A stretch of 64,000 nucleotides of DNA from Desulfobacteraceae bacterium (GCA_011389745.1 JAABTQ010000010.1:11645-75644); one strand, 5' to 3'; shown: positions 24,792 to 55,499, counted from the stretch's first letter. Numbers and translations are program-made. The notes: generated from the sequence alone by a model not told the origin.

Positions 24792-24806
24792 GCAATAAGC
24801 ATGCCA
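24792..24806 (-). promoter_or_regulatory. sigma-54 (-24/-12) promoter of the mttB-BCCT operon
   Basis: Minus strand reads TGGCAT-GCTTA-TTGCT with canonical GG-N10-GC spacing, about 200 nt upstream of the mttB-family ATG and downstream of the sigma-54 activator gene. Confidence 0.7.
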
Positions 24807-27532: not shown

Positions 27533-27548
27533 TGGCACTATTTTTGCT
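27533..27548 (+). promoter_or_regulatory. sigma-54 (-24/-12) promoter of the MFS transporter gene
   Basis: TGGCAC-TATTT-TTGCT is an exact match to the TGGCAC-N5-TTGCW consensus, about 140 nt upstream of the ATG at 27687. Confidence 0.75.
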
Positions 27549-29159: not shown

Positions 29160-29181
29160 AAGCCTCCGCATCTGGAGGCTC
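29160..29181. terminator. GC hairpin with flanking A-run (terminator-like, orientation ambiguous)
   Basis: AAAAAAA-GCCTCC-GCATCT-GGAGGC. Read on the minus strand it is a hairpin followed by T7; on the plus strand the trailing tract is only TCATTATT. Confidence 0.4.
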
Positions 29182-29287: not shown

Positions 29288-29731
29288 TTGTCAAAGGGGA
29301 ATAATAGAAAACAACGGATGAGTCAAAACAGAAATTTCCAGGCCAGACTAAAGGTCCCTTTTCATGATTTAGATCCCCTTAATGTTGTATGGCATGGTAA
29401 TTATTTGAAGTATTTTGATATTGCAAGATTTGGACTGTTTTCAGCTGCAGGAATCGATTTATACCGATATTCCCTTGAAAAAAATTACATTTTTCCGCTA
29501 ACCAAAACATCCACCAAATTTATATCACCATTGCGGCATAACGATGAATTTATTTGCAAGGCGACACTTTTGGAAGCGACCGTTAAAATCGTTATGGGTT
29601 TTGAGATTCGAAGGGTCATGGACGGTGCTGTGTGCACAAAGGGAAGCAGTGATCAGGTGGCGGTTAAACTGCCCCAAATGGAGATCATGTTCGAAATTCC
29701 AGGAGATATTCGTGAAGCTTTCGGGGTTTAG
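29288..29731 (+). CDS. hotdog-fold acyl-CoA/acyl-ACP thioesterase (4HBT/YbgC-like)
   Basis: 147-aa ORF; an alternative ATG at 29318 is possible. VPFHDLDPLNVVWHGNYLKYFD matches the YbgC/4HBT catalytic-Asp region. Confidence 0.75.
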   Translation: MSKGNNRKQRMSQNRNFQARLKVPFHDLDPLNVVWHGNYLKYFDIARFGLFSAAGIDLYRYSLEKNYIFPLTKTSTKFISPLRHNDEFICKATLLEATVKIVMGFEIRRVMDGAVCTKGSSDQVAVKLPQMEIMFEIPGDIREAFGV

Positions 29732-31452
29732 TGTTGGATAGAAATATTTGCCCTGCACTTGTGAGCGGATTTGAACGTCTGTCGGCGTGGGCTGATTTAC
29801 TGGATCAGATCAATGTATTTCCTGTTGCCGACTCGGATACCGGTCGAAATCTGGTCATCAGCCTGAGTCCTTTACGTCGGTTGAGTGATAATCCGGAAAA
29901 GATGATTCAGAAAATATTGTTTTCCGCGTGCGGAAACAGCGGAAATATCGCAGCACATTTTTTTTCCGGTTTTCTGACCCTTCAATCACCCGGGGATTTA
30001 TTTTATGCGGCAAAACTGGGAAAAGAATATGCGTGGAAATCCATCGCTAATCCTAAATCCGGAACCATATTGAATGTGTTTGATGTCCTTGCTGATTTTT
30101 CGCCATCCGATTTTTCCCTCGATCAGAAACAATTATTTAAAATTATTGATCAGTTGGCTGATACAGTCTGGAATACCGCGGAGATGATTCCTGAACTTAA
30201 AGCGGCCGGGGTTGTCGACTCAGGGGCACTGGGGATGTTCATTTTTTTCGAGGGTTTTTTTAACGGTCTGATGGAAAATCAACACCGATTCATTCCGGTG
30301 ACCGAAAGATTTAAAAGCAAATTGACTGTTTCCGATACATTCAAAAGTAAGCAGGCCATGGGCTACTGTGTTGACATGGTTATCGTTCCGGATAAAAACG
30401 GCCGGAAGATGGTGAACCAGCTTGCCGACTATGGCGAGAATATGGTTGCTTCAAAGGATAATGATTTTGTCAAAATTCATATCCATACCCGCAATAAAGA
30501 TGGTCTGAAAAATATGGTCGGTTCCATCGGCCGGTTAGTGGACTGGTCTGAAGAAGATATTGGGCAGCAGGTCGAATCTTTTGGATTGCTAAAGATTGAA
30601 CGCCCTGTTCATATTATGACCGATGCTTCAGGATCATTGACCCGGAATGATTCAAAAGATTTTCAGATCACCCTGCTTGACAGTTATATTATGACCGGAA
30701 AAAAATGTTGTCCGGAAACCCTGATGGATGCTTCCGGGATATATTCAGCACTGAAAAATGGAGAAAAAGTGACCACTTCCCAGGCATCTGTTTTTGAAAG
30801 GCACCAACATTACCGGAGTGTTTTAAGCCGTTATGACAGGGTTTTATACCTTTGTACCGGGTCGGTTTATACGGGTAATTATGATGCAGCCAGGGCATGG
30901 AAAAAAGCAAATGATCCGGATGATCGGTTTACTGTGATCGATACGGGGGCGGCATCAGGGCGATTGGCAGCCATGGTGCTTGCTACGGCAAGATATGCTG
31001 AAAATTCCGGTGATCATCAAAGCGTAATTGATTATGCACGGTCAGCAGTGGAAAATGCCCACGAATATATTTTTTTAGATCGTCTTCAATATCTGGCAGC
31101 CGGCGGAAGGCTTTCTAAAAGCAGCGCTTTTATTGGCGATATGCTCCATGTAAAGCCGATTATCTCACCTCAGGCAACAGGAGCAAAGAAAGTCGGAACC
31201 GCCGGAAATGCAAAAGCTCAAATCCGGTTTGCCATGGAAAAATTATCCCGGTTTTATGAAAAAAAGAAATTTTTATTTATCATAGTGGAATACTCGGATA
31301 ACCGCCAATGGGTTGAAGACTGCGTGAAAAGGAAAATACAACATATTTATCCGTTAACAGAAATCATTTTACAGCCGCTTTCTCTGACTTCGGGCGTACA
31401 CATGGGACCGGGAACATGGGCGGTGGCTTTTATGACTGAAAATAAAAAGTAA
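29731..31452 (+). CDS. DAK2 (DhaL)-domain / DegV-domain fusion protein (FakA/FakB-like fatty-acid kinase/binding module)
   Basis: 573-aa ORF. N-terminal DhaL-like DSDTGRNL motif; the C-terminal half begins like DegV proteins (VHIMTDASGSLTRNDSKDFQITLLDSYI...) and ends with SLTSGVHMGPGTWAVAF. Confidence 0.65.
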   Translation: MLDRNICPALVSGFERLSAWADLLDQINVFPVADSDTGRNLVISLSPLRRLSDNPEKMIQKILFSACGNSGNIAAHFFSGFLTLQSPGDLFYAAKLGKEYAWKSIANPKSGTILNVFDVLADFSPSDFSLDQKQLFKIIDQLADTVWNTAEMIPELKAAGVVDSGALGMFIFFEGFFNGLMENQHRFIPVTERFKSKLTVSDTFKSKQAMGYCVDMVIVPDKNGRKMVNQLADYGENMVASKDNDFVKIHIHTRNKDGLKNMVGSIGRLVDWSEEDIGQQVESFGLLKIERPVHIMTDASGSLTRNDSKDFQITLLDSYIMTGKKCCPETLMDASGIYSALKNGEKVTTSQASVFERHQHYRSVLSRYDRVLYLCTGSVYTGNYDAARAWKKANDPDDRFTVIDTGAASGRLAAMVLATARYAENSGDHQSVIDYARSAVENAHEYIFLDRLQYLAAGGRLSKSSAFIGDMLHVKPIISPQATGAKKVGTAGNAKAQIRFAMEKLSRFYEKKKFLFIIVEYSDNRQWVEDCVKRKIQHIYPLTEIILQPLSLTSGVHMGPGTWAVAFMTENKK

Positions 31453-31455
31453 AAA

Positions 31456-33147
31456 ATGAATATAAAAATCATCAGTTCGGAATACCCGAAATATGAGGTC
31501 GGATCTGTGGTGGTCAGCGGTGAAAACCTGAGTATAGATGATGTGGTACGGGTCGCCCGTCAGGGTGCCGGGGTTTTAATGACCAAAGATAAGATAGTTT
31601 TGGATCAGGTAACAAAATCTCACCATTTTATCATGAAAGCGGTTGAGGAAAAAAAATCCATTTACGGGGTTACCACGGCTTTTGGGGGGATGGCCAATGT
31701 TGCTGTGCCCATTGAAGATGCCGAAGCGCTTCAGAACAATATTCCATGGCCCCACAAAACCGGAGCCGGTAAAAAACTGTCTGTATCCGATATCAGGGCA
31801 AGTATGATGTTGAGAGCCAATTCACTCATGAAGGGTGTTTCCGGGGTGAGATTGGAGATCATTGAGCGATTAATCGATTTTCTCAATAAAGGCCTGACTC
31901 CGGATGTATATGAATTGGGCTCTATTGGTGCCAGTGGTGACCTTGTGCCCCTTTCCTATATTGCAGGGGCGATTATCGGACTTGATTCCTCTTTTACAGT
32001 GACCGTTAGGGGCAAAACCATGGATTGCATTTCTGCTTTGCAATCGGTTGGTTTACCCAGAATGCGCTTATTCCCAAAAGAAGGCCTCGCCCTTATCAAT
32101 GGCACATCGGTCATGGCCGGAATTGCTTCTAATTGTATTTATGATGCACGGTTGTTGTTGTCGCTGGCTTTGGGTGCCCATGCCTTGTTTTTTCAGGGTC
32201 TTGGGGCATCTGATCAATCATTTCATCAGTTTATTGAAAAACAAAAGCCTCATCCCGGACAAATCCTGGTTTCTTCACAAATGCGGAGGCTTCTTAAAGG
32301 ATCTCGATTAATCCGAAAGGAATTTAACGGAAGAAACCCTCATGACAAAAATGAACTGGAACAAGACCGGTATTCATTGCGCTGTTTACCTCAATTTATT
32401 GGGCCCGTGGCTGATGGTCTTTCCATAATCACCCGGCAGTTGGAAACAGAAATCAACTCTGCCACCGATAACCCATTGATCGATATCGAAAACGATGCCT
32501 ATTACTACTGTGGAAATTTTTTAGGGCAATATGTAAGCATCGGTATGGATCAGTTGCGATATTATATGGGATTGATGGCAAAACATCTGGATGTCCAGAT
32601 CGCTATGGTTGTCGCCCCCGAGTTTAACAATGGCCTGCCCCAGTCACTGGTGGGTAACCCCGCAAAAAAAGTCAATCTTGGCCTTAAAGGGCTTCAGTTA
32701 ACCTGCAACTCGATCATGCCGCTTATCTGCTTTTTTGGAAATTCTCTGGCGGATCGTTTTCCCACTCATGCGGAACAGTTCAACCAGAACATCAACAGCC
32801 AGGGATTCGGTTCAGCCAATCTGGCCCGGCAATCATTGGACATGTTCTGCCAATATATGGCTGCGGCACTCATGTTCGGTGTGCAAGCCGCCGACCTTCG
32901 CACGCATATGGTTTTCGGACACTTTGATGCACGCAGGAGTTTATCACCGGCAAGTATCATGCTTTATGAAAGCATCCTGAAAGTGACCGGAAAGTCCCCC
33001 TCTGAAAAACACCCGTATATTTTCAACGATAACGAACAGTCCCTGGATCAACTCATGTTTAAAATATCGGAAGACGTTGGTGCAGATGGGATAATTCCGC
33101 AATCGGTCAGGGATACAATTTCAGCTTTTACTGATCATCAAAGCTGA
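31456..33147 (+). CDS. MIO-dependent aromatic amino acid ammonia-lyase/aminomutase (HAL/PAL/TAL family)
   Basis: 563-aa ORF. YGVTTAFGG, MIO-forming triad in GSIGASGDLVPLSYIAG, and NGTSVM. Confidence 0.9.
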   Translation: MNIKIISSEYPKYEVGSVVVSGENLSIDDVVRVARQGAGVLMTKDKIVLDQVTKSHHFIMKAVEEKKSIYGVTTAFGGMANVAVPIEDAEALQNNIPWPHKTGAGKKLSVSDIRASMMLRANSLMKGVSGVRLEIIERLIDFLNKGLTPDVYELGSIGASGDLVPLSYIAGAIIGLDSSFTVTVRGKTMDCISALQSVGLPRMRLFPKEGLALINGTSVMAGIASNCIYDARLLLSLALGAHALFFQGLGASDQSFHQFIEKQKPHPGQILVSSQMRRLLKGSRLIRKEFNGRNPHDKNELEQDRYSLRCLPQFIGPVADGLSIITRQLETEINSATDNPLIDIENDAYYYCGNFLGQYVSIGMDQLRYYMGLMAKHLDVQIAMVVAPEFNNGLPQSLVGNPAKKVNLGLKGLQLTCNSIMPLICFFGNSLADRFPTHAEQFNQNINSQGFGSANLARQSLDMFCQYMAAALMFGVQAADLRTHMVFGHFDARRSLSPASIMLYESILKVTGKSPSEKHPYIFNDNEQSLDQLMFKISEDVGADGIIPQSVRDTISAFTDHQS

Positions 33148-33997
33148 CCATTTTTTTTGACTCGGCAATTTCCCAGATCAGGGCGGTGCCGACGATGAAA
33201 TTATTGTCTCTTTTAACCAGGGGACTGTCATCATAGACTGCGCCGGAAATATTATCCCATCTTGAATAAAAACCCAATGAAAGGTTATCGGTAAGTTTTT
33301 TTTGAAGTGTACCCGCCAGGGAAAATCCGGAATAACCGGTGTCGGATTTGTAATGGGGCCTTCCTGGTCGAACATCCTCGCGCGGCACATCATAAAAATA
33401 GCTGTTTAACTGACTGTTGGAAAAATCGATTCCCGCGTTTAATCCATAGCTCAAATCATATTTTTCAAAGCTGCTCTGGTTAAAATAGATCAGGTTCAGA
33501 CCTGAACGAAGGCCCTGATAACTGATGTTCACACCATGATCAAAACCCAGAGAGTATGCCGCCCGCAAGGCCAGTCTCAAATAAAGGGAATCCATGGGAT
33601 GACGTCCTAACATATACCATTTGATCGCAGGCCCGACCTCAAAAATGGCATCCAGACCGGACATGCCCTCACGGGCCTTGGTATCACTGCTGACCGGAGG
33701 GTTTCCATATAATGAAATATTGGTTTCAAAATAATCGCTATCATAAAAAATACCACGGATACTTTCCCGATCGGCCCGGATAATGTCTCCCCGGTAAATG
33801 ATATAGGGCAGAGGAACTACATACCATTTGTATTCATCAGAGCCACGGTAATGAGGAAGTCTGGCTGCAGCGTTAAACAGCCCGAATTCCCAGAGAGGAT
33901 ATTGTATATCCTCTTCGGAGAAAACTACACCGTTGAAAATCATAAGAAAAATTAGTATGGTTAATAACTTGTATATGATTTTCTTTAATGTTTTCAT
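33128..33997 (-). CDS. MipA/OmpV-like outer-membrane beta-barrel protein
   Basis: Start moved to MKTLKKIIYKLL..., which has a signal peptide. Alternating beta-strand pattern, RLPHYRGSDEY and GMSGLDAIFEVGP resemble the MipA family, and it has an aromatic C-terminal region. The 3' end overlaps the convergent ammonia-lyase gene by 20 nt. Confidence 0.55.
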   Translation of the reverse strand: MKTLKKIIYKLLTILIFLMIFNGVVFSEEDIQYPLWEFGLFNAAARLPHYRGSDEYKWYVVPLPYIIYRGDIIRADRESIRGIFYDSDYFETNISLYGNPPVSSDTKAREGMSGLDAIFEVGPAIKWYMLGRHPMDSLYLRLALRAAYSLGFDHGVNISYQGLRSGLNLIYFNQSSFEKYDLSYGLNAGIDFSNSQLNSYFYDVPREDVRPGRPHYKSDTGYSGFSLAGTLQKKLTDNLSLGFYSRWDNISGAVYDDSPLVKRDNNFIVGTALIWEIAESKKMVSFDDQ

Positions 33998-34060
33998 AAC
34001 CTTGTCCCTTTTATTTGTAACCCTGAATAGTTTTTTGTTTAAACGATTATGGTGATTTTT

Positions 34061-34798
34061 ATGAAAATGCAAGCACGAAATAAAAAAAAAATTTGCATTG
34101 TGATTCCTGTTTATAATCATGAAAGGACGGTCGCAGAAGTTGCACGGCAGGCGTTGAAATTAAATCTACCGGTCTTTATTGTTGATGACGGATCAAGTGA
34201 TACCAGCTATGTAAAGATCAAAAACATCAAGGGTGTACGAATATTGCGTCATTTCAGAAATCTGGGAAAGGGAGCTGCACTAATGACCGGATTTGCTGAA
34301 GCGGTAAAAGCGGATATGAATTGGGCCGTCACCCTGGATGCCGACGGTCAGCATAATCCGATGGATGCCGTATCCATGATAAGGGCAATACCCGAAAGAA
34401 AACGTCCTGTGGTAGTGGGAATCAGAATTGGAATGATCCATGGGGATGTACCATGGACAAGTCGGTTTGGAAGAAAATTTTCCAACTTCTGGGTTTTTTT
34501 ATCAGGCGGACCTAAAATGTCCGATTCACAGAGTGGTTTCAGAATATATCCTTTGCCTGAAATATTGAATCTTAACATCGTATCGAGGCGGTTTCAATTC
34601 GAGGTGGAGGTTTTAGCCAAAGCCGGATGGAAACGTATCCCGGTAGTTGAGGTTCCCATCAGTGTCAATTACTGTCCGCTGGGAAAAAGAATATCACATT
34701 TTCGTCCTTTTTTGGATTTTGTCAGAAACAGCACCACATTTACCCGGCTTATTATTCAGAGAATTTTTATTCCGTTATCCTACCGAATAAGACAATAA
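34061..34798 (+). CDS. family 2 glycosyltransferase
   Basis: ICIVIPVYNHE, VFIVDDGSSD and TLDADGQH (DxD-type) GT-A motifs. The exact start (34049/34061/34067) is uncertain. Confidence 0.8.
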   Translation: MKMQARNKKKICIVIPVYNHERTVAEVARQALKLNLPVFIVDDGSSDTSYVKIKNIKGVRILRHFRNLGKGAALMTGFAEAVKADMNWAVTLDADGQHNPMDAVSMIRAIPERKRPVVVGIRIGMIHGDVPWTSRFGRKFSNFWVFLSGGPKMSDSQSGFRIYPLPEILNLNIVSRRFQFEVEVLAKAGWKRIPVVEVPISVNYCPLGKRISHFRPFLDFVRNSTTFTRLIIQRIFIPLSYRIRQ

Positions 34799-34802
34799 AC
34801 AT

Positions 34803-37244
34803 ATGCAACACCAAAAAAAGTATAAACCCAGGTGGACTATTGTGTTTCTCATGATGGTTGTGGTTTTATTTTTTCTGATGTTAAGTTTTTACAGGCTTCA
34901 AATTGATAGTGATATTATTGGGTCGCTTCCGGAAAATGATCCGGTGATATCCGATGCCGGGCATGTGATGGTACATCATCCCATGCAGGATCTCGTGGTT
35001 ATCGACATAGGAACGGACACTGTGCAACCGGATGTTCTGGTGGAGGCAGGACATCTTGTCGAACAGCGATTAAAAGATAGCGGGCTTTTTGAGAAGGTGG
35101 GAATCAGTCATGAAGGGCATCTGATACCTGAATTAATTAGCATGGTGACAGACAGCTTGCCATGGATTTTTTCTGAAAAACAACTGCAGGAGCAGATTGC
35201 TCCCCTGCTGGTACCCGATCGGATAGTCCAAAAACTGGATGAAACTCTCTTGCAGTTTCATAATATCGACAGTATCGGCAGGGCCGAGAATATATCCAGG
35301 GATCCATTAGGGTTTGGAAACATTATCCTTGCCCGACTGATCCATCTGGCGCCGACAGAAAATGCAGGCATATACAAGGGAAGTCTTTTGTCTTCGGATC
35401 AAAAACACCTGCTGATTTTGGCAAAGCCCAATGAATCAGGTACCGATACGGTTGTAGGACAAAACATCGCCTCCACTATCGACCAGGTATATCAGGAAAT
35501 GAATCAGCAGTTCTCAAAAAAAGGATATCAAGTTTCACTGACTCCGATGGGGGGGTATCGTGCAGCCCTGGACAACGAGGCTTCAGCCAAAAGTGATGTG
35601 CAGAAAGCGATCCTTTTTTCTACCCTGGGCATTGCTCTTTTGCTGGTTTTGGCTTTTCCAAGGCCATGGCTTGGACTTCTGGCGCTTTTGCCGGCGCTTG
35701 TAGGGACGGTCATTGCGCTTTTTGTGTACTCGCTTGTTTTTGATACGATCTCACTTTTAACTATTGGGTTTGGCGGGGCTATCATCGCCATTTCAGTGGA
35801 TCATGGAATAGCATACATGCTGTTTTTGGATCGCCCTGTTGAAAGCAGCGGTAAGGATGCCTCGAAGGAAGTTCGATCGGTGGGACTTCTGGCAGCTCTG
35901 ACCACCATCGGCGCTTTTTTTTCACTCTCCTTTTCCGGTTTTCCCATTTTGGCACAGGCCGGCTTGTTTGCCGGAATGGGGATTGGCTTTTCCTTTCTTT
36001 TTGTTCATTGGTTATTTCCTTTAATGATCCCGATGATGCCACCGGCCAGGCGTAAAAATACCATGCCGCTTCAAAAGTTTGTCAACGGATTTGCATTAAA
36101 GGGTGAAAAATATAAATTGGTCATGGCTTTAGGATTCGGTTTTGTGATGTTTTTTTTTGCTAAAGCGGACTTTCAGGTGGATTTAAGAGCCATGAATACG
36201 GTCAGCGATAAGACCCGAGCTGCTGAAAATCAAATACAGGAAACCTGGGGTAATATTTTTTCAAAGGTATTTTTGATGGTCGAAGAACATAGCCTTGATG
36301 CGCTGCAGGAAACCTCGGACATGGTTTTATCTGCTTTGGAAAACGACATGGCATCCCAAAGCCTTTCTTCGGTTTTTTTACCTTCCATGATATTTCCCGG
36401 CGAAAACCGCGGGGCTGAAAATTTCCAGGCATGGAAAGGATTCTGGAACCAACAGCGAAAAGATGACTTAAGACGAATAATGGCGGATAATTCAATCCGA
36501 TTAGGATTTACTCCGGATGCCTTTGATCCTTTTTTTCAAAGCCTTGATCAACAAACCTATACATTTCATGAAATTCCGGAAAAATTCCATGACCTTTTGG
36601 GCATTTCCCATGATTTGGAACGGTCAATGTGGGTTCAGTTTTCCACTTTGCTTCCAGGCAGTGAATACAATGCCGAAGGTATTTATTCCCGATTGGCCAC
36701 AATAGAAAACACGACCATGTTCGATCCTCGTTTTTTTGGACAAAGACTTGGAAAGGTACTTTCAGATACCTTTTTAAAGATGCTTTTAATTGTCGGTTGC
36801 AGTATGGTTATTTTGCTGATGATTTTTTTTTCTGACTTAAAACTCACCATTGTTGCCGCGATTCCCGTCATTTTTGCATTTATCTGTACCCTAGGCACCT
36901 TGAACCTGACAGGGCATCATCTGGGAATACCGGCGCTGATGCTTTCCATCGTGGTGGTCGGCATGGGGGTGGATTATTCGATTTTTTTTATCCGGTCATA
37001 TCAGCGATACAGAGATAAAAACCATGTTTTTGTCGGGCTGTTTCGGATGGCTGTTTTTCTGGCTTCCATATCGAGCCTTATAGGCTTCGGAGTGCTGAGC
37101 ATTGCAGATCATGCTCTGCTGAAAAGTGCGGGGTTGCCTTCTTTTTTGGGGATTGCTTATGCGGTGATCGGAACTTTTACGTTACTTCCTCCTGTTTTGG
37201 GACGTTTATTCCCTGATCTGAAGACAGATAAACCCGGAGAATAA
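34803..37244 (+). CDS. MMPL/RND-superfamily exporter
   Basis: 813-aa ORF with two blocks of about 6 TM helices, each preceded by a large soluble loop. Architecture matches the predicted exporters of lipid/aryl-polyene clusters. Confidence 0.75.
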   Translation: MQHQKKYKPRWTIVFLMMVVVLFFLMLSFYRLQIDSDIIGSLPENDPVISDAGHVMVHHPMQDLVVIDIGTDTVQPDVLVEAGHLVEQRLKDSGLFEKVGISHEGHLIPELISMVTDSLPWIFSEKQLQEQIAPLLVPDRIVQKLDETLLQFHNIDSIGRAENISRDPLGFGNIILARLIHLAPTENAGIYKGSLLSSDQKHLLILAKPNESGTDTVVGQNIASTIDQVYQEMNQQFSKKGYQVSLTPMGGYRAALDNEASAKSDVQKAILFSTLGIALLLVLAFPRPWLGLLALLPALVGTVIALFVYSLVFDTISLLTIGFGGAIIAISVDHGIAYMLFLDRPVESSGKDASKEVRSVGLLAALTTIGAFFSLSFSGFPILAQAGLFAGMGIGFSFLFVHWLFPLMIPMMPPARRKNTMPLQKFVNGFALKGEKYKLVMALGFGFVMFFFAKADFQVDLRAMNTVSDKTRAAENQIQETWGNIFSKVFLMVEEHSLDALQETSDMVLSALENDMASQSLSSVFLPSMIFPGENRGAENFQAWKGFWNQQRKDDLRRIMADNSIRLGFTPDAFDPFFQSLDQQTYTFHEIPEKFHDLLGISHDLERSMWVQFSTLLPGSEYNAEGIYSRLATIENTTMFDPRFFGQRLGKVLSDTFLKMLLIVGCSMVILLMIFFSDLKLTIVAAIPVIFAFICTLGTLNLTGHHLGIPALMLSIVVVGMGVDYSIFFIRSYQRYRDKNHVFVGLFRMAVFLASISSLIGFGVLSIADHALLKSAGLPSFLGIAYAVIGTFTLLPPVLGRLFPDLKTDKPGE

Positions 37245-37252
37245 TAAAAGGT

Positions 37253-38140
37253 ATGGCTGAGATTTTTTATCAGTGGATTGTTCTGTTGTCTAAAAAGTAT
37301 GGTCTCTGGATTTTTAAAACATACGCATGGATTGTGGCAACGGGCTTTTTTTTGATATTTCCATTGGGTGTGGCTGCTGGTGTTCGCTTTTATCGGGCGC
37401 TGTTTCCCAAAAAGGTTCTGTGGTTTCACCTTTGGTGCGTCTGGAGGCAGTACCATAATTTTACATCCATTTTTTTGGATCGGTTTATACTGGAAGAATT
37501 TGCTGATATTACTTACAGTTCCGAAGGATGGGAGCATATTGAAAAAGCCATTAAAGAAAAAACCGGTGGGATCATTCTCATGTCCCATATGGGCAATTGG
37601 GAGATGGCTGCACACATTTTAAAACGCAAACACCCCGAAATCCCACTTCTTTTGTACATGGGAATCAAACAGAAAGAACAGATGGAGCGACTGCAAAAGG
37701 AGAGCCTGGCCGGAACCGGAATAAAAATAATCGGCGTTGAAAAACAGAACCCGTCTCCTTTTGACATCATTGAGGGAGTCAGGTTTTTAAAAAATGGAGG
37801 CATGGTTTCTCTTACCGGTGACAGAATATGGTATGAAGGTCAAAAAAGCGTATGGACCAGGTTTTTGGGACATGAATTAAGACTTCCGGAAACACCCTAT
37901 GTTTTTTCTCTGCTTTCCGGTTCTCCATTGTTTGTTTTTTTTGCATTTCGCACGGGGCAGGGGAAATATCAATTTTCCATCGCAAAGCTTGATTGTACGA
38001 GGTCTTGTTCTAGGTCGGAAAGAAAGGAAACTGTTATGCGACTGGCTGAGCAATATGCACGATTGCTTGAGCAGGCACTTCATAATTATCCCTATCAATG
38101 GGCTAATTTTGGTTTTTTTCTGGGCAAAAGACTAAATTGA
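37253..38140 (+). CDS. LpxL/HtrB-type lysophospholipid (lipid A-like) acyltransferase
   Basis: 295-aa ORF with an N-terminal TM anchor and SHMGNWEM (HX4E catalytic motif of the LpxL/LpxM family). Confidence 0.7.
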   Translation: MAEIFYQWIVLLSKKYGLWIFKTYAWIVATGFFLIFPLGVAAGVRFYRALFPKKVLWFHLWCVWRQYHNFTSIFLDRFILEEFADITYSSEGWEHIEKAIKEKTGGIILMSHMGNWEMAAHILKRKHPEIPLLLYMGIKQKEQMERLQKESLAGTGIKIIGVEKQNPSPFDIIEGVRFLKNGGMVSLTGDRIWYEGQKSVWTRFLGHELRLPETPYVFSLLSGSPLFVFFAFRTGQGKYQFSIAKLDCTRSCSRSERKETVMRLAEQYARLLEQALHNYPYQWANFGFFLGKRLN

Positions 38141-38166
38141 TCTGTTAAACTGAGGCTATTTTGTAT

Positions 38167-38427
38167 ATGAAATTAGAGCGGGAGTACATTTTAAAGGAAC
38201 TATCCCGGATTTTTAATGAAAAATTTGAAATTAAAAATCCGGGTGTTGATGATGACTTAAGAGAAGAGTATGAGTTCGACAGTATCGATGCAATTGAGCT
38301 TCTTGTGGAGATTGAAAAGATTTTGGGATTTCCCCTGAGCCAGGAGCAAAAAAAAATGGCCATGGAGGTCCGTACAATCGAACAGATTTGCGATTATATT
38401 CAGAGAATGGAATATGTGGGGGTTTAA
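38167..38427 (+). CDS. acyl carrier protein
   Basis: 86-aa ORF from the ATG at 38167. Phosphopantetheine-attachment motif EFDSIDAIELLVEIE. Confidence 0.8.
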   Translation: MKLEREYILKELSRIFNEKFEIKNPGVDDDLREEYEFDSIDAIELLVEIEKILGFPLSQEQKKMAMEVRTIEQICDYIQRMEYVGV

Positions 38428-38471
38428 GGTGTCATAAAATTTGTTTGATAGAAGGTGTTGACTGGAGAATC

Positions 38472-39704
38472 ATGGAAAAAAAAGTTGTTATTACCGCTTG
38501 TTCTGCCCTGACACCCATCGGCCATGGCAAACAACAGATTTTGCATAGCCTGAAAAATGGTCTTTCCGGCGTTAAACCATTGTGTGATGATGGTCTTTTA
38601 TCAGATTATATTCATTCCAAAGTGTTCGGCACTATCGATTATCCGGTGGAATTTGATTTCAAACGCAGCCATCGAAAAACCATGGGGCCTGTAGCATTTT
38701 ATGCATGTCAGGTGGTCAAGGAAGTTCTGGAACAAGCAGGGCTTGATGACGATTTTATCACCTCGGGCCGTCTGGGTGTGGCTTTTGGCTCCACCCATGG
38801 GAGCCCGACAATTCAGCGAAATATCTATAAAACATTTTTCAGCGGTTCAAAAGATCAGTTTTCCACTGTCAGTGCGGTAGATTATCTTAAATCGATGGTT
38901 CACACCACGGCTGTAAATATTACCAAAATGTTCGGCATAACCGGGCGAGTCATTTCTTCATCCACGGCATGCACCACAAGTAGCCAATCCATTGGTTTTG
39001 GATACGAAATGGTCAAGTTCGGGATACAGGATGCCATGATTTGCGGCGGGGCTGATGAATACGATACCACTACCGTTGCCGTATTTGATAACCTTCTTGC
39101 CTGTTCCACCGCTTTTAACGATACACCTAATCTTACACCACGTCCTTTTGAGGCCAGGCGTGATGGTCTGGTTGTGGGTGAAGGTGCCGGGGCAGTGCTG
39201 CTCGAGGAATATAACCGGGCTAAAAAACGCGGCGCTGATATTTTGGGTGAAGTGATCGGGTTTTCCTGCAATAACAATGGTGGTGATCTGATTTTGCCCA
39301 ATGCCAAGGGTATTAAAGAAACCATTCGATTGGGTCTTGAAAGCGCAAAAATAAAGGCCGAAGATGTGGACTTAATCAGTGCCCATGCAACAGGGACCAA
39401 GATGGGTGATGTGATTGAAGCTCAGGCGATTCACAGTATTTTCAGTGACACTGTTCATGTCACAGGATTGAAAAGCTATATGGGCCATACCATGGGAACC
39501 TGCGGTGTTATTGAAACCATTATCGCTTTGTACATGATGGAAAAAGGATTTATCGCTCCGACGTTAAACCTTGAAAAAATAGACAAGCGATGTGCAATGA
39601 TCAAACATGTCACAGACCTGGTGGATTCGGAAATCCGAATTGCACTGGTTCAGAACTTTGCATTCGGCGGTGTGAATACATGCCTGATCCTGAAAAAAGT
39701 GTGA
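38472..39704 (+). CDS. beta-ketoacyl-ACP synthase (elongating KAS I/II type)
   Basis: Start at the ATG at 38472, with a GGAGAA RBS. Cys-His-His triad contexts are SSTACTTSSQS, SAHATGT and YMGHTMGTCG. C-terminal NFAFGGVNTCLIL. Confidence 0.9.
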   Translation: MEKKVVITACSALTPIGHGKQQILHSLKNGLSGVKPLCDDGLLSDYIHSKVFGTIDYPVEFDFKRSHRKTMGPVAFYACQVVKEVLEQAGLDDDFITSGRLGVAFGSTHGSPTIQRNIYKTFFSGSKDQFSTVSAVDYLKSMVHTTAVNITKMFGITGRVISSSTACTTSSQSIGFGYEMVKFGIQDAMICGGADEYDTTTVAVFDNLLACSTAFNDTPNLTPRPFEARRDGLVVGEGAGAVLLEEYNRAKKRGADILGEVIGFSCNNNGGDLILPNAKGIKETIRLGLESAKIKAEDVDLISAHATGTKMGDVIEAQAIHSIFSDTVHVTGLKSYMGHTMGTCGVIETIIALYMMEKGFIAPTLNLEKIDKRCAMIKHVTDLVDSEIRIALVQNFAFGGVNTCLILKKV

Positions 39705-39717
39705 TTTTGAACCAATA

Positions 39718-40506
39718 GTGATGCAACCTTTTTTTAAACATATAAAACCCGCGGCTGATTTAATCCTCACACTGATTTACTGGACCTATTTTACGTTGGG
39801 ATATATCATTTTTTTTCTTCCTTTGTATTTGTGGTCGGCATTTTTTTCAAAAGATCCTGAACAGTCATTTCAGAAATTGAACCATCTTTTCTACAAAGGA
39901 TTTTTTGGTCTGGTAAGATCCATAACTCCAGGGTTGAACTTTGATATTGATGAGCAGGTGTTGTCTGTTCGTTCTTCAATTATTGTCTGCAACCACATAT
40001 CGTATCTTGATCCTATCCTTTTGATTTCTTTATATGAAAAGCATAAAACCATTGTAAAGAATATATTTTTTAAACTCCCTGTTTTCGGATGGGTTTTGAA
40101 ACGATCAGGATATATGCCATCGGCTTCCGATGCAAAATTAAGTGAAGTAATGCTCCGACAGGTTGAAGGCATGCACGAGTATCTGGCTTCGGGAGGTAAC
40201 TTGTTTGTGTTTCCCGAAGGAACCCGGAGTCGTGACGGCAACATTGGAAAATTTGAAAAAGGCCTGTTCAAGATCGCCAGGTTCTGTCATGCACCTGTAA
40301 AGGTATTTTTCATTCAAAATTCCAATCGGTTGTTTTATCCGGGTAAATTTTTGTTCAATACCTGCACGAAAAACGTAATCAAACTAAAACTCATCGGAGA
40401 GATTACCTTTGATAAACAAGGCAAAATGCCTCCTGTTGATGATATGATTGGAATGGTGCGCTCGATGATGGAAACATATAACATGGATTCCGGAAAAAAA
40501 TCATGA
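39718..40506 (+). CDS. PlsC-family 1-acyl-sn-glycerol-3-phosphate-type acyltransferase
   Basis: N-terminal TM segment, HX4D motif in CNHISYLDP, and the FPEGTRS motif. Confidence 0.8.
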   Translation: MMQPFFKHIKPAADLILTLIYWTYFTLGYIIFFLPLYLWSAFFSKDPEQSFQKLNHLFYKGFFGLVRSITPGLNFDIDEQVLSVRSSIIVCNHISYLDPILLISLYEKHKTIVKNIFFKLPVFGWVLKRSGYMPSASDAKLSEVMLRQVEGMHEYLASGGNLFVFPEGTRSRDGNIGKFEKGLFKIARFCHAPVKVFFIQNSNRLFYPGKFLFNTCTKNVIKLKLIGEITFDKQGKMPPVDDMIGMVRSMMETYNMDSGKKS

Positions 40507-42020
40507 AAATCGCTTTAATCTCCATGCCCGATGTCACGCCGTTCATAATACATGAAACCGCAGTGCATATGCCCAATCTGGGCATTGCAAGTATTGGGGC
40601 CAATATAGACGAAAAGCACGAGGTCTATGTTATTGATCTGATCCGAAAGCGACGTCAGGTTCGAAAATATCTCACCAGGACCCTTTTGAAAATACGGCCG
40701 GATTTGGTAGGGTTATCGGCCATGACCTGGCAATTTGATACCTGTGTGAAAATCATCAGGCTGATCAAAAGATTGTTGCCCCATGTCGGAATCGTCATCG
40801 GCGGATACCATACAACACTGATGTATAAAGAAATTGCCGCATCTGATGAGTCTGAATTGATTGATTTTATGATAAGGGGGGAAGGGGAGGAAGCTTTCAG
40901 AAGGCTGGTTGATGCATTAGACGGGAAAGACCGGTTCAAGGACATTGCGTCGCTATCATATAAGATAGCTTCGGAACAGATGAATCCGCAAAAAAAAGAG
41001 GAGAATCTTTTTATCCATAATCCAAAGGGTGACCTGTTGGATTTGTCCCGGATAAAACTGCCCATTCGTGACAAGAGGCGACTGACCTGGGGATATCATG
41101 TATTGTACAATAAAATTGAAGTGATGGAAACATCACGCGGATGTACCCGGTCCTGTAATTTTTGCAGTATCCGCCATATGTACGGCAAAAGCTTCAGGGT
41201 TTATCCTGTGGAGAGGGTTCTGGCCGACCTTGACGATATCTACTACAACCGTAAGACCCGTTGGGCATTCATTGCCGATGATAACCTGGTTTTGGCCCCT
41301 GAAAGGGTGATTGAACTCTGTGAAGCCATTTGTCGGAAAAGGTATAAAAACTTCAACCTGGTGATCCAGGCTGATTGTATTTCAATGGCCAAAAATGAAA
41401 CAATGGTCGAAAAATTGGCGCAGGCAGGAGTAAGATCCGTTTTTCTGGGCATTGAAAATGCCTCTCCAAAAAATCTCAGAGCAGTTCACAAGGGAGATAT
41501 TACACAGGCTGCGGTCAAAGCCGTTTCCAATTGCCATCGATACGGAATTATGGTGATCGGTGGGCTGATCCATGGCTTTCCTGATGATGATGATGCGGCG
41601 ATTATCCGCAATTACGAATTTTTCAATGCGTTAAAAATCGATGCCGTCTATACTCAGATTCTAACACCGTATCCCAAAACCGGAATTCGGCAAAACCTCA
41701 AGGAGGAAGGTTTGATTACCAATCTCTATGATTACGGGTATTACAACGGGCTGTGGGCCAATGTGAAAACCAGACACTTGTCTTCAGAACAGCTTCAGTA
41801 TCTTTTCTGGTATCGTAAACAAACGGTTCTGGGATGGTGGGAGCCCTCGGAGCTTGCCAGAAGAGACGGCAAATTATGGACATCTATTTGGCGTTTAGCA
41901 TTCAGGCCGGTACTCAGATATTTTATTAACAGAAATCTTAGAAAATACGGATGGCAAGGCCGGTATCAAAAAGAACTTTTAAGGTTATCAAACATGAATC
42001 GTTTTGATGATATTAGATAA
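40503..42020 (+). CDS. B12-binding-domain radical SAM protein
   Basis: 505-aa ORF overlapping the upstream stop by 4 nt. N-terminal Rossmann-like B12-binding region (VGLSAMTWQF...VIGGYH), CX3CX2C in SRGCTRSCNFCSI, and FLGIENASP. Confidence 0.85.
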   Translation: MKIALISMPDVTPFIIHETAVHMPNLGIASIGANIDEKHEVYVIDLIRKRRQVRKYLTRTLLKIRPDLVGLSAMTWQFDTCVKIIRLIKRLLPHVGIVIGGYHTTLMYKEIAASDESELIDFMIRGEGEEAFRRLVDALDGKDRFKDIASLSYKIASEQMNPQKKEENLFIHNPKGDLLDLSRIKLPIRDKRRLTWGYHVLYNKIEVMETSRGCTRSCNFCSIRHMYGKSFRVYPVERVLADLDDIYYNRKTRWAFIADDNLVLAPERVIELCEAICRKRYKNFNLVIQADCISMAKNETMVEKLAQAGVRSVFLGIENASPKNLRAVHKGDITQAAVKAVSNCHRYGIMVIGGLIHGFPDDDDAAIIRNYEFFNALKIDAVYTQILTPYPKTGIRQNLKEEGLITNLYDYGYYNGLWANVKTRHLSSEQLQYLFWYRKQTVLGWWEPSELARRDGKLWTSIWRLAFRPVLRYFINRNLRKYGWQGRYQKELLRLSNMNRFDDIR

Positions 42021-42083
42021 TTTTTCTCACTGCTTCATGATGTTGGCTGTGGTGTGAGATTATTTCAAAGAGCGAAGTAATAC

Positions 42084-42130
42084 TACCCTGATATTGCAAA
42101 ACAATAAGCATGTTTGCTTCAATCCGGCAA
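42084..42130. repeat. MITE-like intergenic repeat, left-end-only copy
   Basis: CCCTGATATTGCAAAACAATAAGCATGTTTGCTTCAATCCGGCA closely matches 20451-20491 (CCCCGATGTTGCAAAATAAGCATGTTTGCTTGAATCCGGCA). Confidence 0.6.
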
Positions 42131-42233
42131 TCTTATCCATATGCATGATATTGAAAATAATATTTGAAAAAGTGATCCCATTGACGATAAATGTTTAGAG
42201 AGAAGGAAATAAAATAACTCAATCATTTGGAGG

Positions 42234-42689
42234 ATGGCGATGAAAGATATAAATTATAATTCGGTTTTTAAGAATATTCAGATCTTGTTGATTGCAACGG
42301 CAATAACAGTTTCCGGACAATTGTTTTCAAATCAGGCATTTTCACAGACTATCGGCCCAGAGATTATGATGGCCCAAAATTCTCAACGATCTGAAAAGGT
42401 GATTAATATTCGCCTTAATGGTGCAGCCGATTATGAACTTGTAGAAGTCTTTGGGAAAGTGCTCAATAAATCACAAGGCGTGCTGGAAGCTAAACGCCAT
42501 GGTTCCAGAATCGTTCCGGACAATCCACGGGCTTGTTTTGCCGTCTGGAGAGTCCGGATTCATGAACCGGATCCTTCCCGTCTGCAAGCAAATATTATCA
42601 ATGCAATACATAATACCGGAGCTGATCTGCTAAAAGGAATCCGTCCCGGTAGTGCCTCTGCTAGTGAAATACAGTTTTTTGCACACTGA
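42234..42689 (+). CDS. hypothetical secreted protein
   Basis: 151-aa ORF with GGAGGA upstream and an N-terminal hydrophobic signal-like segment (IQILLIATAITVSGQLFSNQAFS). No recognised motif. Confidence 0.4.
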   Translation: MAMKDINYNSVFKNIQILLIATAITVSGQLFSNQAFSQTIGPEIMMAQNSQRSEKVINIRLNGAADYELVEVFGKVLNKSQGVLEAKRHGSRIVPDNPRACFAVWRVRIHEPDPSRLQANIINAIHNTGADLLKGIRPGSASASEIQFFAH

Positions 42690-42782
42690 TGGATTTTAAT
42701 GAATCAAGATTTAATGATTTCACATAAAGTTTTCAAATGTTAACGCATTGAATAAATAAGATTCAGAAAATGAAAAAAAGAT

Positions 42783-42812
42783 TTGACAAATAAAAATACC
42801 TGAGGATAAAAT
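42783..42812 (+). promoter_or_regulatory. putative sigma-70 promoter
   Basis: TTGACA - 18 nt - TAAAAT. This would give a leader of about 290 nt before the acyl-CoA synthetase ATG. Confidence 0.4.
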
Positions 42813-43108
42813 GTTCCATGTCTGAGCGAGCGCTCGGTCAACGATAATTCCGAGACATCGTATCAGTACGGTTTTACAGGATAAAAGCGGAAATTTTGAA
42901 CAGAATCATTATCGCCATCTGAGCAAATGATAACTAAAGCCTGTTTTCATGGTACTTTTTTATAAAAGAGAAAAGGAGCGTTTCCTGAAATGATTTGTCC
43001 ACCAGGAGGTTTTCAGGAAATACCGGGGGTGAAACTATTTCCGACAGGATTAGATAAGAGGAAATGGTTGCCTGTTTTGCATTTTTTAACCGAATAGGAG
43101 GAGAAAGC

Positions 43109-45013
43109 ATGACCAACCCGTACATCGAAGCGTATGAAAAATCAATCAACGATCCTGAAGGGTTCTGGGGCCCGATTGCCGAGGACTGCCATTGGTACAA
43201 AAAATGGGACAAGGTTCTTGATGATTCCAACAAACCTTTTTATCGGTGGTTTGTCGGAGGTGAGTGTAACACTTGCTATAACGCATTGGACTACCATATT
43301 GATAACGGCCTCGGGAATCAGTTGGCGCTTATTTACGACAGCCCGGTAACCAATACCATTAAAAAATTTACATACAATGAACTCAGAGATGAAGTTGCCA
43401 AATTTGCCGGTGTTTTAAAGGCCCAGGGTGTGGAAAAAGGGGACCGTGTTCTCATTTATATGCCCATGATTCCTCATGCAGCAATATCGATGTTGGCATG
43501 TGCCCGCATCGGGGCTGTCCACTCCGTGGTATTTGGTGGTTTTGCCGCCAAAGAGTTGGCAACCCGAATTAACGATGCCAAACCAAAAGTGATTGTAACG
43601 GCTTCGTGCGGAATTGAGGTAAAAAGAGTCATCCCTTATAAGCCCCTTCTCGAAGGCGCTATCGAAATGGCAACTTCCAAACCCGAAAAATGTATCGTTT
43701 TTCAGCGTCCGATGGAAACTGCGGAAATGATGGAGGGAAGAGACGTTGATTGGGATGAAGCCATGAAAAAAGCTGTTCCGGCTGATTGTGTACCCGTAAA
43801 GGCAACAGATCCCCTGTACATTCTTTATACCTCGGGAACCACAGGAGTCCCCAAGGGTGTTGTCAGGGATAACGGCGGACACATGGTGGCATTAAAATAC
43901 AGCATGAAAGCCGTTTATAATATGGATCAGGGTGATGTTTACTGGGCGGCATCCGATGTCGGCTGGGTTGTCGGCCATTCCTACATTGTGTATGCTCCGC
44001 TTTTCAAAGGCTGCACCACGATTCTTTTTGAAGGAAAACCTGTCGGCACACCTGATGCCGGTGCTTTCTGGCGGGTTATTTCAGAGCATGGCGTCAAGGC
44101 ACTTTTTACCGCACCCACGGCATTCAGAGCCATCAAACAGCAGGACCCCAAAGCCGAACTGATGAAAAACTATGATTTGTCCAACTTCAAAGCACTTTTT
44201 CTGGCGGGTGAACGGCTCGATCCCGATACTCTTACATGGGCTGAAAGGGCTTTGAATGTTCCGGTAATAGACCATTGGTGGCAAACCGAAACCGGCTGGG
44301 CCATTTGTGCCAATTGTCTGGGACTTCATCATTACGAGGTAAAACAAGGGTCTCCGACCAAGCCTGCTCCCGGATGGAATCTTGCGGTGGTTGATGATTC
44401 CAGTAAAGAAGTTCCCAAGGGAACAATCGGTGCGCTGGTGGTAAAACTACCCCTTCCTCCTGGCACGCTTCCTACATTATGGAAAAAAGATGATGCTTAT
44501 ATATCATCCTACCTTGAGGAATTTCCAGGTTATTATAAGACCGCTGATGCCGGTTTCATCGATGAAGACGGATATGTTTTTGTTATGGCCCGTACCGATG
44601 ACATTATTAATGTGGCCGGCCATCGTCTGTCCACAGGCGGCATGGAGGAGGTTCTCGCGGATCATCCGGATGTTGCCGAATGCGCGGTACTTGGTGTTGA
44701 AGACCAGCTCAAGGGGCAGATTCCTGTTGGATTTTTGGTACTCAATGCCGGTGTTGACAGATCCCATGATGAAATTGTCAAAGAAGTGGTTCAAATGGTC
44801 AGAGATCGAATCGGACCGGTGGCCGCATTCAAGAAAGCAACGGTTGTTAAACGCCTTCCAAAAACACGTTCCGGAAAGATTCTGCGAGGCACCATACAAA
44901 AGATTGCCGATAACAAAGAATACAATGTTCCTGCCACCATTGATGATCCTGCAGTTCTGGGGGAAATGGCTGATGCTTTAGAAACGATTGGTCTGGCAAA
45001 AGCAAGAAAATAG
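43109..45013 (+). CDS. prpE: propionate--CoA ligase-like acyl-CoA synthetase (Acs/PrpE family)
   Basis: Start at the ATG at 43109, with an AGGAGGA RBS. The N-terminus YEKSINDPEGFWG...RWFVGGECN resembles PrpE. AMP-binding motif YTSGTTGVPKG; VYMPMIPHAAISMLACARIGAVHSVVFGGF. Confidence 0.85.
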   Translation: MTNPYIEAYEKSINDPEGFWGPIAEDCHWYKKWDKVLDDSNKPFYRWFVGGECNTCYNALDYHIDNGLGNQLALIYDSPVTNTIKKFTYNELRDEVAKFAGVLKAQGVEKGDRVLIYMPMIPHAAISMLACARIGAVHSVVFGGFAAKELATRINDAKPKVIVTASCGIEVKRVIPYKPLLEGAIEMATSKPEKCIVFQRPMETAEMMEGRDVDWDEAMKKAVPADCVPVKATDPLYILYTSGTTGVPKGVVRDNGGHMVALKYSMKAVYNMDQGDVYWAASDVGWVVGHSYIVYAPLFKGCTTILFEGKPVGTPDAGAFWRVISEHGVKALFTAPTAFRAIKQQDPKAELMKNYDLSNFKALFLAGERLDPDTLTWAERALNVPVIDHWWQTETGWAICANCLGLHHYEVKQGSPTKPAPGWNLAVVDDSSKEVPKGTIGALVVKLPLPPGTLPTLWKKDDAYISSYLEEFPGYYKTADAGFIDEDGYVFVMARTDDIINVAGHRLSTGGMEEVLADHPDVAECAVLGVEDQLKGQIPVGFLVLNAGVDRSHDEIVKEVVQMVRDRIGPVAAFKKATVVKRLPKTRSGKILRGTIQKIADNKEYNVPATIDDPAVLGEMADALETIGLAKARK

Positions 45014-52993: not shown

Positions 52994-53188
52994 TCACATC
53001 GGTCGGATCGGTTACTTAGGACTCATTTTTTATATTTTTATTGACAAAAAGCAAGTTCCTATTTATTTGAGTCACATAAAGCGGATACGGGCAGCGGGTA
53101 TCCAGCGTCGGTAAAAGGCGCAACCCTGGATGTGCTGAATAGTTACGAAAGATTTTACTGAGTGCTGTTGAGAGGGGCAGGTTTTGGA

Positions 53189-55452: not shown

Positions 55453-55499
55453 ACCGTCCCTGGGACCGCCACACCCCAGTGCGGCAAGGATTATTCAGC

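Follow-up and report, generated by a model that had tools for sequence, protein, structure and literature searches.

Does the dense run of eleven genes at positions 29288-42020 of a Desulfobacteraceae bacterium contig (GCA_011389745.1, JAABTQ010000010.1:11645-75644) encode a complete lipid pathway, or one part of a larger one? The 64,000-nucleotide stretch that we analysed (64 kb, hereafter the window) contains there genes for a thioesterase (TE), a DAK2-DegV fusion protein, an aromatic amino-acid ammonia-lyase, a MipA-like outer-membrane protein, a family 2 glycosyltransferase (GT2), an MMPL exporter, an LpxL-type acyltransferase, an acyl carrier protein (ACP), a ketosynthase (KS), a PlsC-type acyltransferase and a B12-binding radical S-adenosylmethionine enzyme (rSAM). 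A preliminary description of this DNA recognized an abridged aryl-polyene (APE)/xanthomonadin-type cluster and took the abridgement for the sign of a distinct, self-contained pathway. Our analysis favors another answer, to which we assign a probability of about one half: the conserved core of the cluster, termed module A below, would be the anchoring and export half of an APE/flexirubin-type pigment-lipid pathway in its Desulfobacterota form, beside which the dialkylresorcinol (dar) module has been deleted in this genome.

A six-frame listing of open reading frames (ORFs) and Pfam/NCBIfam profile scans of the window bore out all eleven genes with the domains ascribed to them, and direct protein comparison by blastp with the ape cluster fetched from E. 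coli CFT073 paired seven of the products with Ape proteins. The TE aligned over its full length with ApeK (31.5% identity, E = 2e-21), the GT2 with the N-terminal half of ApeJ (residues 8-230; 33%, 4e-33), the LpxL-type transferase with the C-terminal half of ApeJ (residues 358-545; 23%, 5e-15), the PlsC-type transferase with ApeD (28%, 1e-15), the MMPL protein with ApeM (23%, 6e-10) and the ACP with ApeF (28.8%, 3e-8). The KS matched ApeR over its full length (38.9%, 8e-97), compared with merely 28.6% identity to ApeO. In profile scans, the best NCBIfam family of the KS was NF006587 (391 bits vs. a cut-off of 470; E. coli ApeR scores 779) and that of the ACP was NF003757 (44.8 bits vs. a cut-off of 65), of which E. 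coli ApeF is a member. Judged by these alignments, the seven products are homologs of ApeK, ApeJ, ApeM, ApeF, ApeR and ApeD, with ApeJ split over the GT2 and LpxL genes, and the window holds the Ape anchoring and export set (ApeD, ApeJ, ApeK, ApeM) together with what appear to be the auxiliary KS and ACP. In Xenorhabdus and E. coli, these Ape proteins join a polyene, along with a special conjugated fatty acid, to a glycerol-phosphate-N-acetylgalactosamine anchor and export the product (functions of ApeD, ApeJ, ApeK, ApeM, ApeF and ApeR individually: bioRxiv 10.1101/2020.12.19.423268; PMC8253772).

The hallmarks of polyene synthesis are missing. No second KS or chain-length factor (CLF) corresponding to the ApeO-ApeC heterodimer occurs in the window, no ApeQ-like ketoreductase (KR) or ApeI/ApeP-like dehydratase (DH) was found in or near the cluster, and the profile scans returned no KS-CLF pair, cluster-type KR or DH within the 64 kb. 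A single ACP is present where APE clusters have two (ApeE and ApeF), and the window likewise contains no ApeB, ApeG or ApeN, nor any homolog of the starter-loading enzyme ApeH. The accessory signature and the abridgement noted in the preliminary description are thus both real. Its statement that an adenylating enzyme is absent does not hold: such an enzyme is encoded at 43064-45013, 1 kb downstream of the cluster, as an acetate/propionate-CoA ligase of the Acs/PrpE type and a conserved flank gene. The only short-chain dehydrogenase/reductase (SDR) in the window (54526-55452) is a generic glucose-dehydrogenase/FabG type located in an unrelated high-GC patch. The cluster further differs from the E. 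coli and Xenorhabdus doucetiae apeA-R clusters in its anaerobic host and in having as core members a FakA-FakB fusion (the DAK2-DegV protein) and the B12-rSAM, both correctly singled out earlier as no part of described APE clusters.

Close relatives of the window reveal what has been lost from its 3′ side. A metagenomic contig (L004, 97% nucleotide identity) is collinear by blastn with window positions 36643-42021 and 42022-43202, and between these two stretches, directly after the rSAM gene, it carries 8.8 kb designated module C, which a more distant clade member (L088) has at the same place. In the junction alignment, positions 42022-42057 of the window encode FSHCFMMLAVV-stop, the final 12 codons of L004 darB, and a C-terminus of the form IPESGRFSxxxMLLTVV-stop is common to DarB-family genes of distant loci. 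Because this short segment is a genuine darB remnant, module C was lost from the window by deletion: a recent 8.8-kb event removed the dar genes adjoining the cluster, namely the rest of darB and eight other dar-module genes. An independently assembled Logan contig (L001) crosses the junction at 100% identity. Another relative, L092 (88% rSAM identity), has neither module C nor a darB remnant, so whether a dar block occupies this site varies within the clade. The reverse scenario prompted by L092, in which L004 gained the block through insertion, is ruled out by the match of the 12 codons in the window to the family-wide DarB C-terminus.

Module C encodes an ABC transporter, a KS, a CLF, an ACP, a BtrH-like protein, a small protein, a B12-rSAM and a β-ketoacyl-ACP synthase III-like protein. 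Its NCBIfam scores exceed the cut-offs for the StlD/DarB family (521 vs. 450), DarH (444 vs. 300) and the DarG family (132 vs. 70), which identifies it, by profile, as a dialkylresorcinol cluster. Full DarB, DarG and DarH are encoded in L004 and L088; a search for DarA/DarB genes and flexirubin/dialkylresorcinol membership in the window returned just the 36-nt darB remnant. Module C of the relatives mirrors the Azoarcus dar locus (PMC3949708) but has a B12-rSAM gene at the darA position: in L004 this gene (11920-13215; HpnR-like, below cut-off) stands ahead of darB, at the place that the aromatase gene darA takes in aerobes, and the same order occurs in L030, L044, L046, L066, L071, L076, L078, L081 and L082. 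A phytoene-desaturase-like oxidase is often encoded beside the dar-module rSAM of Desulfobacterota.

A search for relatives of the module A rSAM in one genome per GTDB species, onto whose loci the window and neighbor proteins were then mapped, shows how the cluster is built elsewhere. Such a relative is carried by at least 398 of the species genomes, almost all of them from Desulfobacterota; the best 80 of the 398 (63-76% identity) belong nearly all to Desulfobacterales or Desulfobulbales, with the best match among the species representatives at 75-76%, and the gene cluster is widespread in sulfate-reducing Desulfobacterota. Eight genes form the conserved core, module A: TE, DAK2-DegV, GT2, LpxL-type acyltransferase, ACP, KS, PlsC-type acyltransferase and rSAM. 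Across the 42 loci with enough upstream sequence, the PlsC gene was found in 40, KS and ACP in 38 each, DAK2-DegV, GT2 and LpxL in 33 each and TE in 25. The rSAM (63-76% identity across loci) and the KS (70-80%) are the most conserved proteins of the module. Lyase and MMPL genes each occur in one of the 42 loci, and mipA is absent from all of them; the complete layout of eleven genes, including 289-aa MipA orthologs encoded at the same antisense position, is kept in L088, L089 and L090 (83-90% protein identity). In the clade of the window, module A has thus been extended by clade-specific additions: the ammonia-lyase, the antisense MipA and the MMPL exporter, whose gene is inserted between those for GT2 and the LpxL-type acyltransferase. 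One Desulfobacteraceae metagenome-assembled genome (MAG) has the TE, kinase-like, lyase, GT2 and LpxL genes followed by a defense island (SNF2 helicase, Eco57I-type enzyme, GmrSD) on one contig (L087, 14109-21701) and the ACP, KS, PlsC and rSAM genes on another (L008); module A appears to be split there.

Two further modules recur beside this core. Among the 40 loci with at least 8 kb of sequence downstream of the rSAM gene, a block designated module B lies downstream in 13 and upstream in 2, module C adjoins in 7, and 18 have neither, with module C genes found upstream in some of these 18. Module B is a divergent block encoding a B12-like protein, an unknown protein, LolA, a KR, an ApeP-like DH, an ACP and a fused KS-CLF, and further a B12-rSAM, an ApeI-like DH, another ACP and more rSAMs. 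Blastp pairs its products with ApeL, ApeQ, ApeP, ApeE, ApeO-C and ApeI, so that KS-CLF, KR and DH genes missing from the window adjoin module A in these relatives. The B12-rSAM of module B is a member of TIGR04072, “lipid biosynthesis B12-binding/radical SAM” (409 vs. a cut-off of 360). This family, KS paralogs and ACPs are shared by module B of the relatives (15/40) and the ladderane-type clusters of Kuenenia stuttgartiensis and Desulfotalea psychrophila (the antiSMASH “ladderane” class), and a phytoene-desaturase-like oxidase is sometimes found in module B too; the window, by contrast, has nothing of module B. A 2009 study already remarked on the module B gene set in Kuenenia and Desulfotalea (PMC2649909), and ladderane-type clusters outside anammox bacteria still have no assigned function or product (PMC9902471; PMC13459092).

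These arrangements change how the preliminary description should be read. DAK2-DegV accompanies the rSAM in 33/42 loci and the lyase in 1/42, and neither lyase nor MMPL, each in just one other species-level locus, belongs to the core signature. Its “distinct pathway” is only partly supported: DAK2-DegV and the B12-rSAM are no part of described APE clusters, whereas the abridgement does not point to self-containment. In 13 + 2 of the 40 loci, relatives encode a KS-CLF, KR, DHs and another ACP next to these genes, and in 7/40 the dar module adjoins them; in this genome the neighboring module was deleted, with a darB remnant left behind. Adjacent KR, DH and second KS genes in related loci, the finding it had named as refuting its view, are largely what the survey returned.

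The rSAM itself scores 73.4 bits for PF02310 and 62.8 bits for PF04055 and contains the motif C214-x3-C218-x2-C221 (CxxxCxxC), whose three cysteines are invariant. It lies below every NCBIfam family cut-off (TIGR04072: 95.6 vs. 360), and assignment to the TIGR04072 “ladderane” family, BchE, HpnR or HpnJ was rejected, with scores far under all cut-offs. The AlphaFold model is mediocre (predicted local distance difference test score, pLDDT, of 69), and its best Foldseek matches are AprD4, TsrM, MgmA, OxsB, CysS and TokK. Domains, cysteines and modeled fold place the protein in class B, with cobalamin binding predicted, and the structural neighbors fit, without proving, a methylase or another radical C-H functionalizing enzyme. 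The rSAM gene almost always forms a pair with that of the ApeD-like transferase, and in the clade of the window the two are translationally coupled.

Alignment of the DAK2-DegV protein with 7W7H, 8VIP and 1PZX, using residue roles from PMC9136124, shows that the FakA-aligned nucleotide/Mg residues Asn32, Asp38, Asp40, Thr41, Asn82 and Asp185, the middle-domain triad Cys240/His282/His284 and the GGR arginine of FakB are all kept. A full DegV/FakB domain takes the place of the C-domain through which FakA docks FakB. FakA and FakB of Firmicutes, which share the ATP/Mg site, Cys-His-His triad and FakB arginine, are two proteins, whereas the window encodes one chain, and does so within a pigment-lipid cluster whose host is a Gram-negative anaerobe. 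It scores far below the equivalog cut-offs (FakA, 91 vs. 975; FakB1, 53 vs. 350) and passes the DegV model TIGR00762 (156.8 > 99.7); its best 120 homologs are all three-domain proteins, none with a specific name. A single-chain carboxylic-acid (fatty-acid) kinase is plausible on the strength of these residues, and its gene is translationally coupled to the TE gene. The idea that the kinase stands in for the adenylating enzyme, in its simplest form by replacing ApeH, is weakened by eight loci in which DAK2-DegV coexists with an adjacent ApeH-like gene (L050, L061, L071, L073, L076, L078, L081 and L031), usually where TE is lacking (undetected in seven of the eight, all but L031).

The ammonia-lyase is ~60% identical to cyanobacterial phenylalanine ammonia-lyases (PALs), scores 710 bits against Nostoc/Anabaena PAL and carries the ASG motif of the 4-methylideneimidazol-5-one (MIO) cofactor. 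At the selectivity switch (Phe107-Leu108 in Anabaena PAL) it has Pro-His, and motif 2 keeps the Gln typical of PALs and tyrosine ammonia-lyases. Its best 120 homologs include an x-His group (PH 34, SH 10, YH 8, and others) that takes in all the closest ones; Phe-Leu forms start lower, among named cyanobacterial entries. FlxA, which combines a motif 1 like that of histidine ammonia-lyases with a Gln motif 2, prefers tyrosine 1000-fold (PMC3992019). By analogy, we predict that the lyase of the window prefers tyrosine and forms 4-coumarate. An x-His lyase clade exists in Desulfobacterota: in Desulfonema limicola the gene lies between dar genes, an AMP-ligase gene and a B12-rSAM gene, and in another MAG it lies within module A, as in the window.

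These features recall the flexirubin pathway of Chitinophaga and Flavobacterium, where an ammonia-lyase supplies the aromatic starter, and the lyase of the window has a FlxA-like motif pattern. It nevertheless appears not to be a FlxA ortholog, being closest to cyanobacterial PALs and scoring 289 bits against a cut-off of 700 for the FlxA-type family NF053541. In the xanthomonadin-like arc (arcuflavin) cluster of Azoarcus a mipA gene adjoins glycosyltransferase and acyltransferase genes (PMC3949708), and in the nearest relatives of the window a dar module (DarB, DarG, DarH, KS, ACP, ABC transporter) lies beside the accessory genes. The window differs in its deleted dar module and in having no FlxY-type CoA ligase in the cluster. 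Flexirubin and arcuflavin pathways are split over several loci (PMC3992019, PMC3949708). As APE- and dialkylresorcinol-type pigment pathways are known to be split in this way over unlinked loci (PMC3949708), a polyene core could be unlinked here too; any such core in this organism has to be encoded beyond the 64 kb.

If the APE lipid pathway of Xenorhabdus and E. coli is taken as the model, the ApeF-like ACP and ApeR-like KS would build a special acyl chain, which the ApeD-like PlsC-type transferase would place on a lysophospholipid and the translationally coupled B12-rSAM would modify, most likely by radical methylation. Of the split ApeJ pair, the GT2 may add a sugar, and the LpxL-type transferase may acylate this sugar, using an aryl-polyene or aryl acid that modules located elsewhere produce. 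The lyase would provide the aromatic starter, predicted to be 4-coumarate, the ApeK-like TE would free an acid from its carrier, and the adjacent FakA-FakB kinase would re-activate a free acid to an acyl-phosphate for transfer. MMPL and MipA would then carry the product to the outer membrane.

Several observations weigh against this assignment. No product is known for any Desulfobacterota member of the family, so every chemical step is inferred; identities to the Ape proteins are low (23-39%, with ApeM at just 23%); and the 64-kb window, the only part of the genome examined, contains no polyene core. The rSAM model confirms the class B fold only and gives no clue to a substrate. Two of the 42 loci (L072, L075) have an rSAM ortholog (63% identity) without any module A gene within 10 kb upstream, two others (L046, L058) keep only the PlsC-rSAM pair, and in the eight loci named above the ApeH-like AMP-binding gene sits just upstream of DAK2-DegV, ~6-8 kb upstream of the rSAM gene. 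The 18 loci with neither partner module adjacent, among them those of Desulfosarcina widdelii and Desulfosudis oleivorans, suggest that module A may work alone. With KS-CLF, KR and DH dispensable, the FakA-FakB kinase would convert an acid (possibly the lyase product, in this clade, or a chain released by the TE) to an acyl-phosphate that primes or feeds the ACP/KS/acyltransferase line, the rSAM would tailor the chain, and the result would be a distinct glyco- or acyl-lipid of the outer membrane. The 18 loci have neither module within 10 kb, L092 is without dar block or remnant and has genes under purifying selection, the kinase catalytic residues are intact, and KS and rSAM are very highly conserved. 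We still regard such autonomy as unlikely, given that seven of the eleven proteins are homologous to the APE accessory set, that core or dar modules adjoin in 22 of the 40 loci and that pigment pathways are known in split form; acyl-phosphate priming meets the further objections that ApeH-like ligases coexist with the kinase and that the lyase is confined to a small clade, so that aromatic priming is not the general logic. A self-sufficient route in which a new cobalamin rSAM helps to make a new class of outer-membrane glycolipids of sulfate reducers is accordingly doubtful, although acyl-phosphate priming, if true, would activate the starter by a logic without known precedent among type II polyketide synthase/fatty acid synthase-like clusters.

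It is similarly improbable that the genes serve general membrane-lipid remodeling in Desulfobacterota, for example toward an acyl glycerolipid or glycolipid that is methyl-branched or modified in another way, and are only loosely co-located with pigment modules. The sheer spread of the rSAM family, the persistence of the PlsC-rSAM pair where other genes are absent and the fact that known lipid-modifying rSAMs act on membrane lipids (PMC13459092) would suit such a role, whereas KS and ACP are nearest to the ApeR and ApeF families rather than to FabF/AcpP, the GT2 and LpxL proteins form a split ApeJ, and adjacency to the Ape-like core and dar modules is non-random. That the copy in this genome is a functionless leftover decaying after the 8.8-kb deletion seems very unlikely: the scar at 42022-42057 and a lyase deprived of its nearest plausible partners would fit decay, but all eleven reading frames and catalytic motifs are intact, L092 keeps a dar-less arrangement at greater divergence, and dN/dS against the 97%-identical relative is 0.09-0.36 with no stops or frameshifts, a divergence too small to detect relaxation.

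The cluster class (“ladderane-like”/arylpolyene predictions) and characterized homologs of the accessory proteins are already known. In the literature searched we found neither a characterized DAK2-DegV fusion nor this gene set in sulfate reducers, and nothing on how the cluster divides into modules, on the FakA-FakB fusion, on the unnamed rSAM family or on an rSAM at the DarA position. Few biosynthetic clusters are predicted more often in Desulfobacterota of anoxic sediments than the “ladderane/aryl-polyene-like” ones, to which no product has been assigned since they were first noticed in 2009. Three modules recur among them in our analysis: an Ape-type anchoring module, which includes a FakA-FakB fusion and a member of a new B12-rSAM family, an Ape-type polyene core with a TIGR04072 rSAM, and a dar module with an rSAM at the DarA position. 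Cultured carriers suited to a search for the product are Desulfosarcina widdelii PP31 and Desulfosudis oleivorans, which have module A alone at the locus, Hydrosulfovibrio ferrireducens, which has module A with dar, and Desulfobulbus sp. Tol-SR. The two rSAM families and the single-chain acid kinase would be new enzymology, and if the anchoring module makes APE-type envelope lipids in strict anaerobes, the role proposed for such lipids in protection from reactive oxygen species would need rethinking. The copy in the window is a truncated, degraded example and is therefore of limited use as a model.

The genes are tightly packed (Table 1). The TE and DAK2-DegV genes overlap by 1 nt and the PlsC and rSAM genes by 4 nt, with remaining gaps of 3-51 nt. 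The TE ORF can be extended 5′ to a TTG at 29288, the preferred start being that of the 137-aa call in L090, and calls in relatives also improved the starts of the ACP and KS genes. The listed mipA start gives a classical signal peptide and a 289-aa product that matches calls in relatives. Running on the minus strand, mipA is convergent with the lyase gene (20-nt overlap at the lyase stop) and divergent from the GT2 gene (~50 nt away), so the eleven genes do not form a single co-directional operon. Catalytic motifs are intact, as read from the sequence, in every enzyme of the cluster, including the Cys-His-His triad of the KS (TAC / AHATGT / GHT). All eleven genes are under purifying selection relative to L088, L089 and L090 (dN/dS 0.05-0.24; mipA 0.07-0.11), values at an informative divergence that mark them as real genes rather than chance ORFs. 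Rfam finds no riboswitch or other RNA element inside the cluster.

Table 1. Features of the eleven-gene cluster and its boundaries (window coordinates)
Feature	Position	Strand	Basis or remark
TE: hotdog thioesterase, ApeK-like	29318..29731	+	Pfam 4HBT_2
DAK2-DegV: single-chain FakA/FakB-like protein	29731..31452	+	Pfam Dak2, FakA-like_M, DegV; NCBIfam
MIO aromatic amino-acid ammonia-lyase	31456..33147	+	Pfam Lyase_aromatic, ASG motif
MipA/OmpV-family outer-membrane beta-barrel, signal peptide	33128..33997	-	Pfam E 3.6e-32
GT2 glycosyltransferase, polyprenyl-phosphate-sugar-synthase-like	34049..34798	+	Pfam, NCBIfam
MMPL/RND exporter, distantly ApeM-like	34803..37244	+	Pfam, NCBIfam
LpxL-type acyltransferase	37253..38140	+	Pfam Lip_A_acyltrans
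ACP, ApeF-like	38167..38427	+	Pfam PP-binding, DSI serine
KS: Cys-His-His beta-ketoacyl-ACP synthase, ApeR-like	38472..39704	+	Pfam ketoacyl-synt N+C
PlsC-type acyltransferase, ApeD-like	39718..40506	+	Pfam Acyltransferase
rSAM: cobalamin-binding (class B) radical SAM enzyme, unnamed family	40503..42020	+	Pfam B12-binding + Radical_SAM
Deletion scar, darB 3′ remnant	42022..42057	+	junction alignment, blastn vs. L004
Terminator-like G+C hairpin, 5′ boundary of cluster	29160..29181	.	separates upstream sigma-54-driven major facilitator superfamily (MFS) gene

Beyond the scar, a 151-aa ORF at 42234-42689 (+), without a family match, lies next to the acyl-CoA ligase gene; it is 92% identical in L004, and a 153-aa ORF occupies its position in L092. 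It appears to belong to the flank rather than to the cluster.

Upstream of the cluster, a perfect sigma-54 -24/-12 element, TGGCACTATTTTTGC, lies at 27533-27547 (+) and precedes the MFS transporter gene by 107 nt. Regulation of the lipid cluster by sigma-54 was considered and rejected: this sole perfect site serves the MFS gene, the terminator-like hairpin intervenes, and no sigma-54 site was found before the TE or GT2 genes. A one-mismatch site at 24792-24806 (-) precedes an MttB-family methyltransferase/BCCT transporter gene pair, and the two sites flank a gene for a PrdR-like CBS-PAS sigma-54 activator (25225-27339, -). These genes probably constitute a regulon for betaine-type methylamine uptake that has no relation to the lipid cluster.

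Elsewhere in the window, a 758-aa ORF at 10835-13111 (-) has no Pfam match at any useful threshold. A cobalamin riboswitch at 60309-60485 (-; 58.6 bits, Rfam) immediately precedes a ThiC-family radical SAM gene (58828-60156, -), the product of which passes the ThiC cut-off; because the riboswitch senses B12 rather than thiamine pyrophosphate, a BzaA/BzaF-type synthase of benzimidazole, the B12 lower ligand, is suggested. The high-GC patch at 53162-56000 (0.57 vs. ~0.43 elsewhere), which encodes a ferric-reductase-like flavoprotein and the glucose-dehydrogenase/FabG-type SDR, may have been horizontally acquired.

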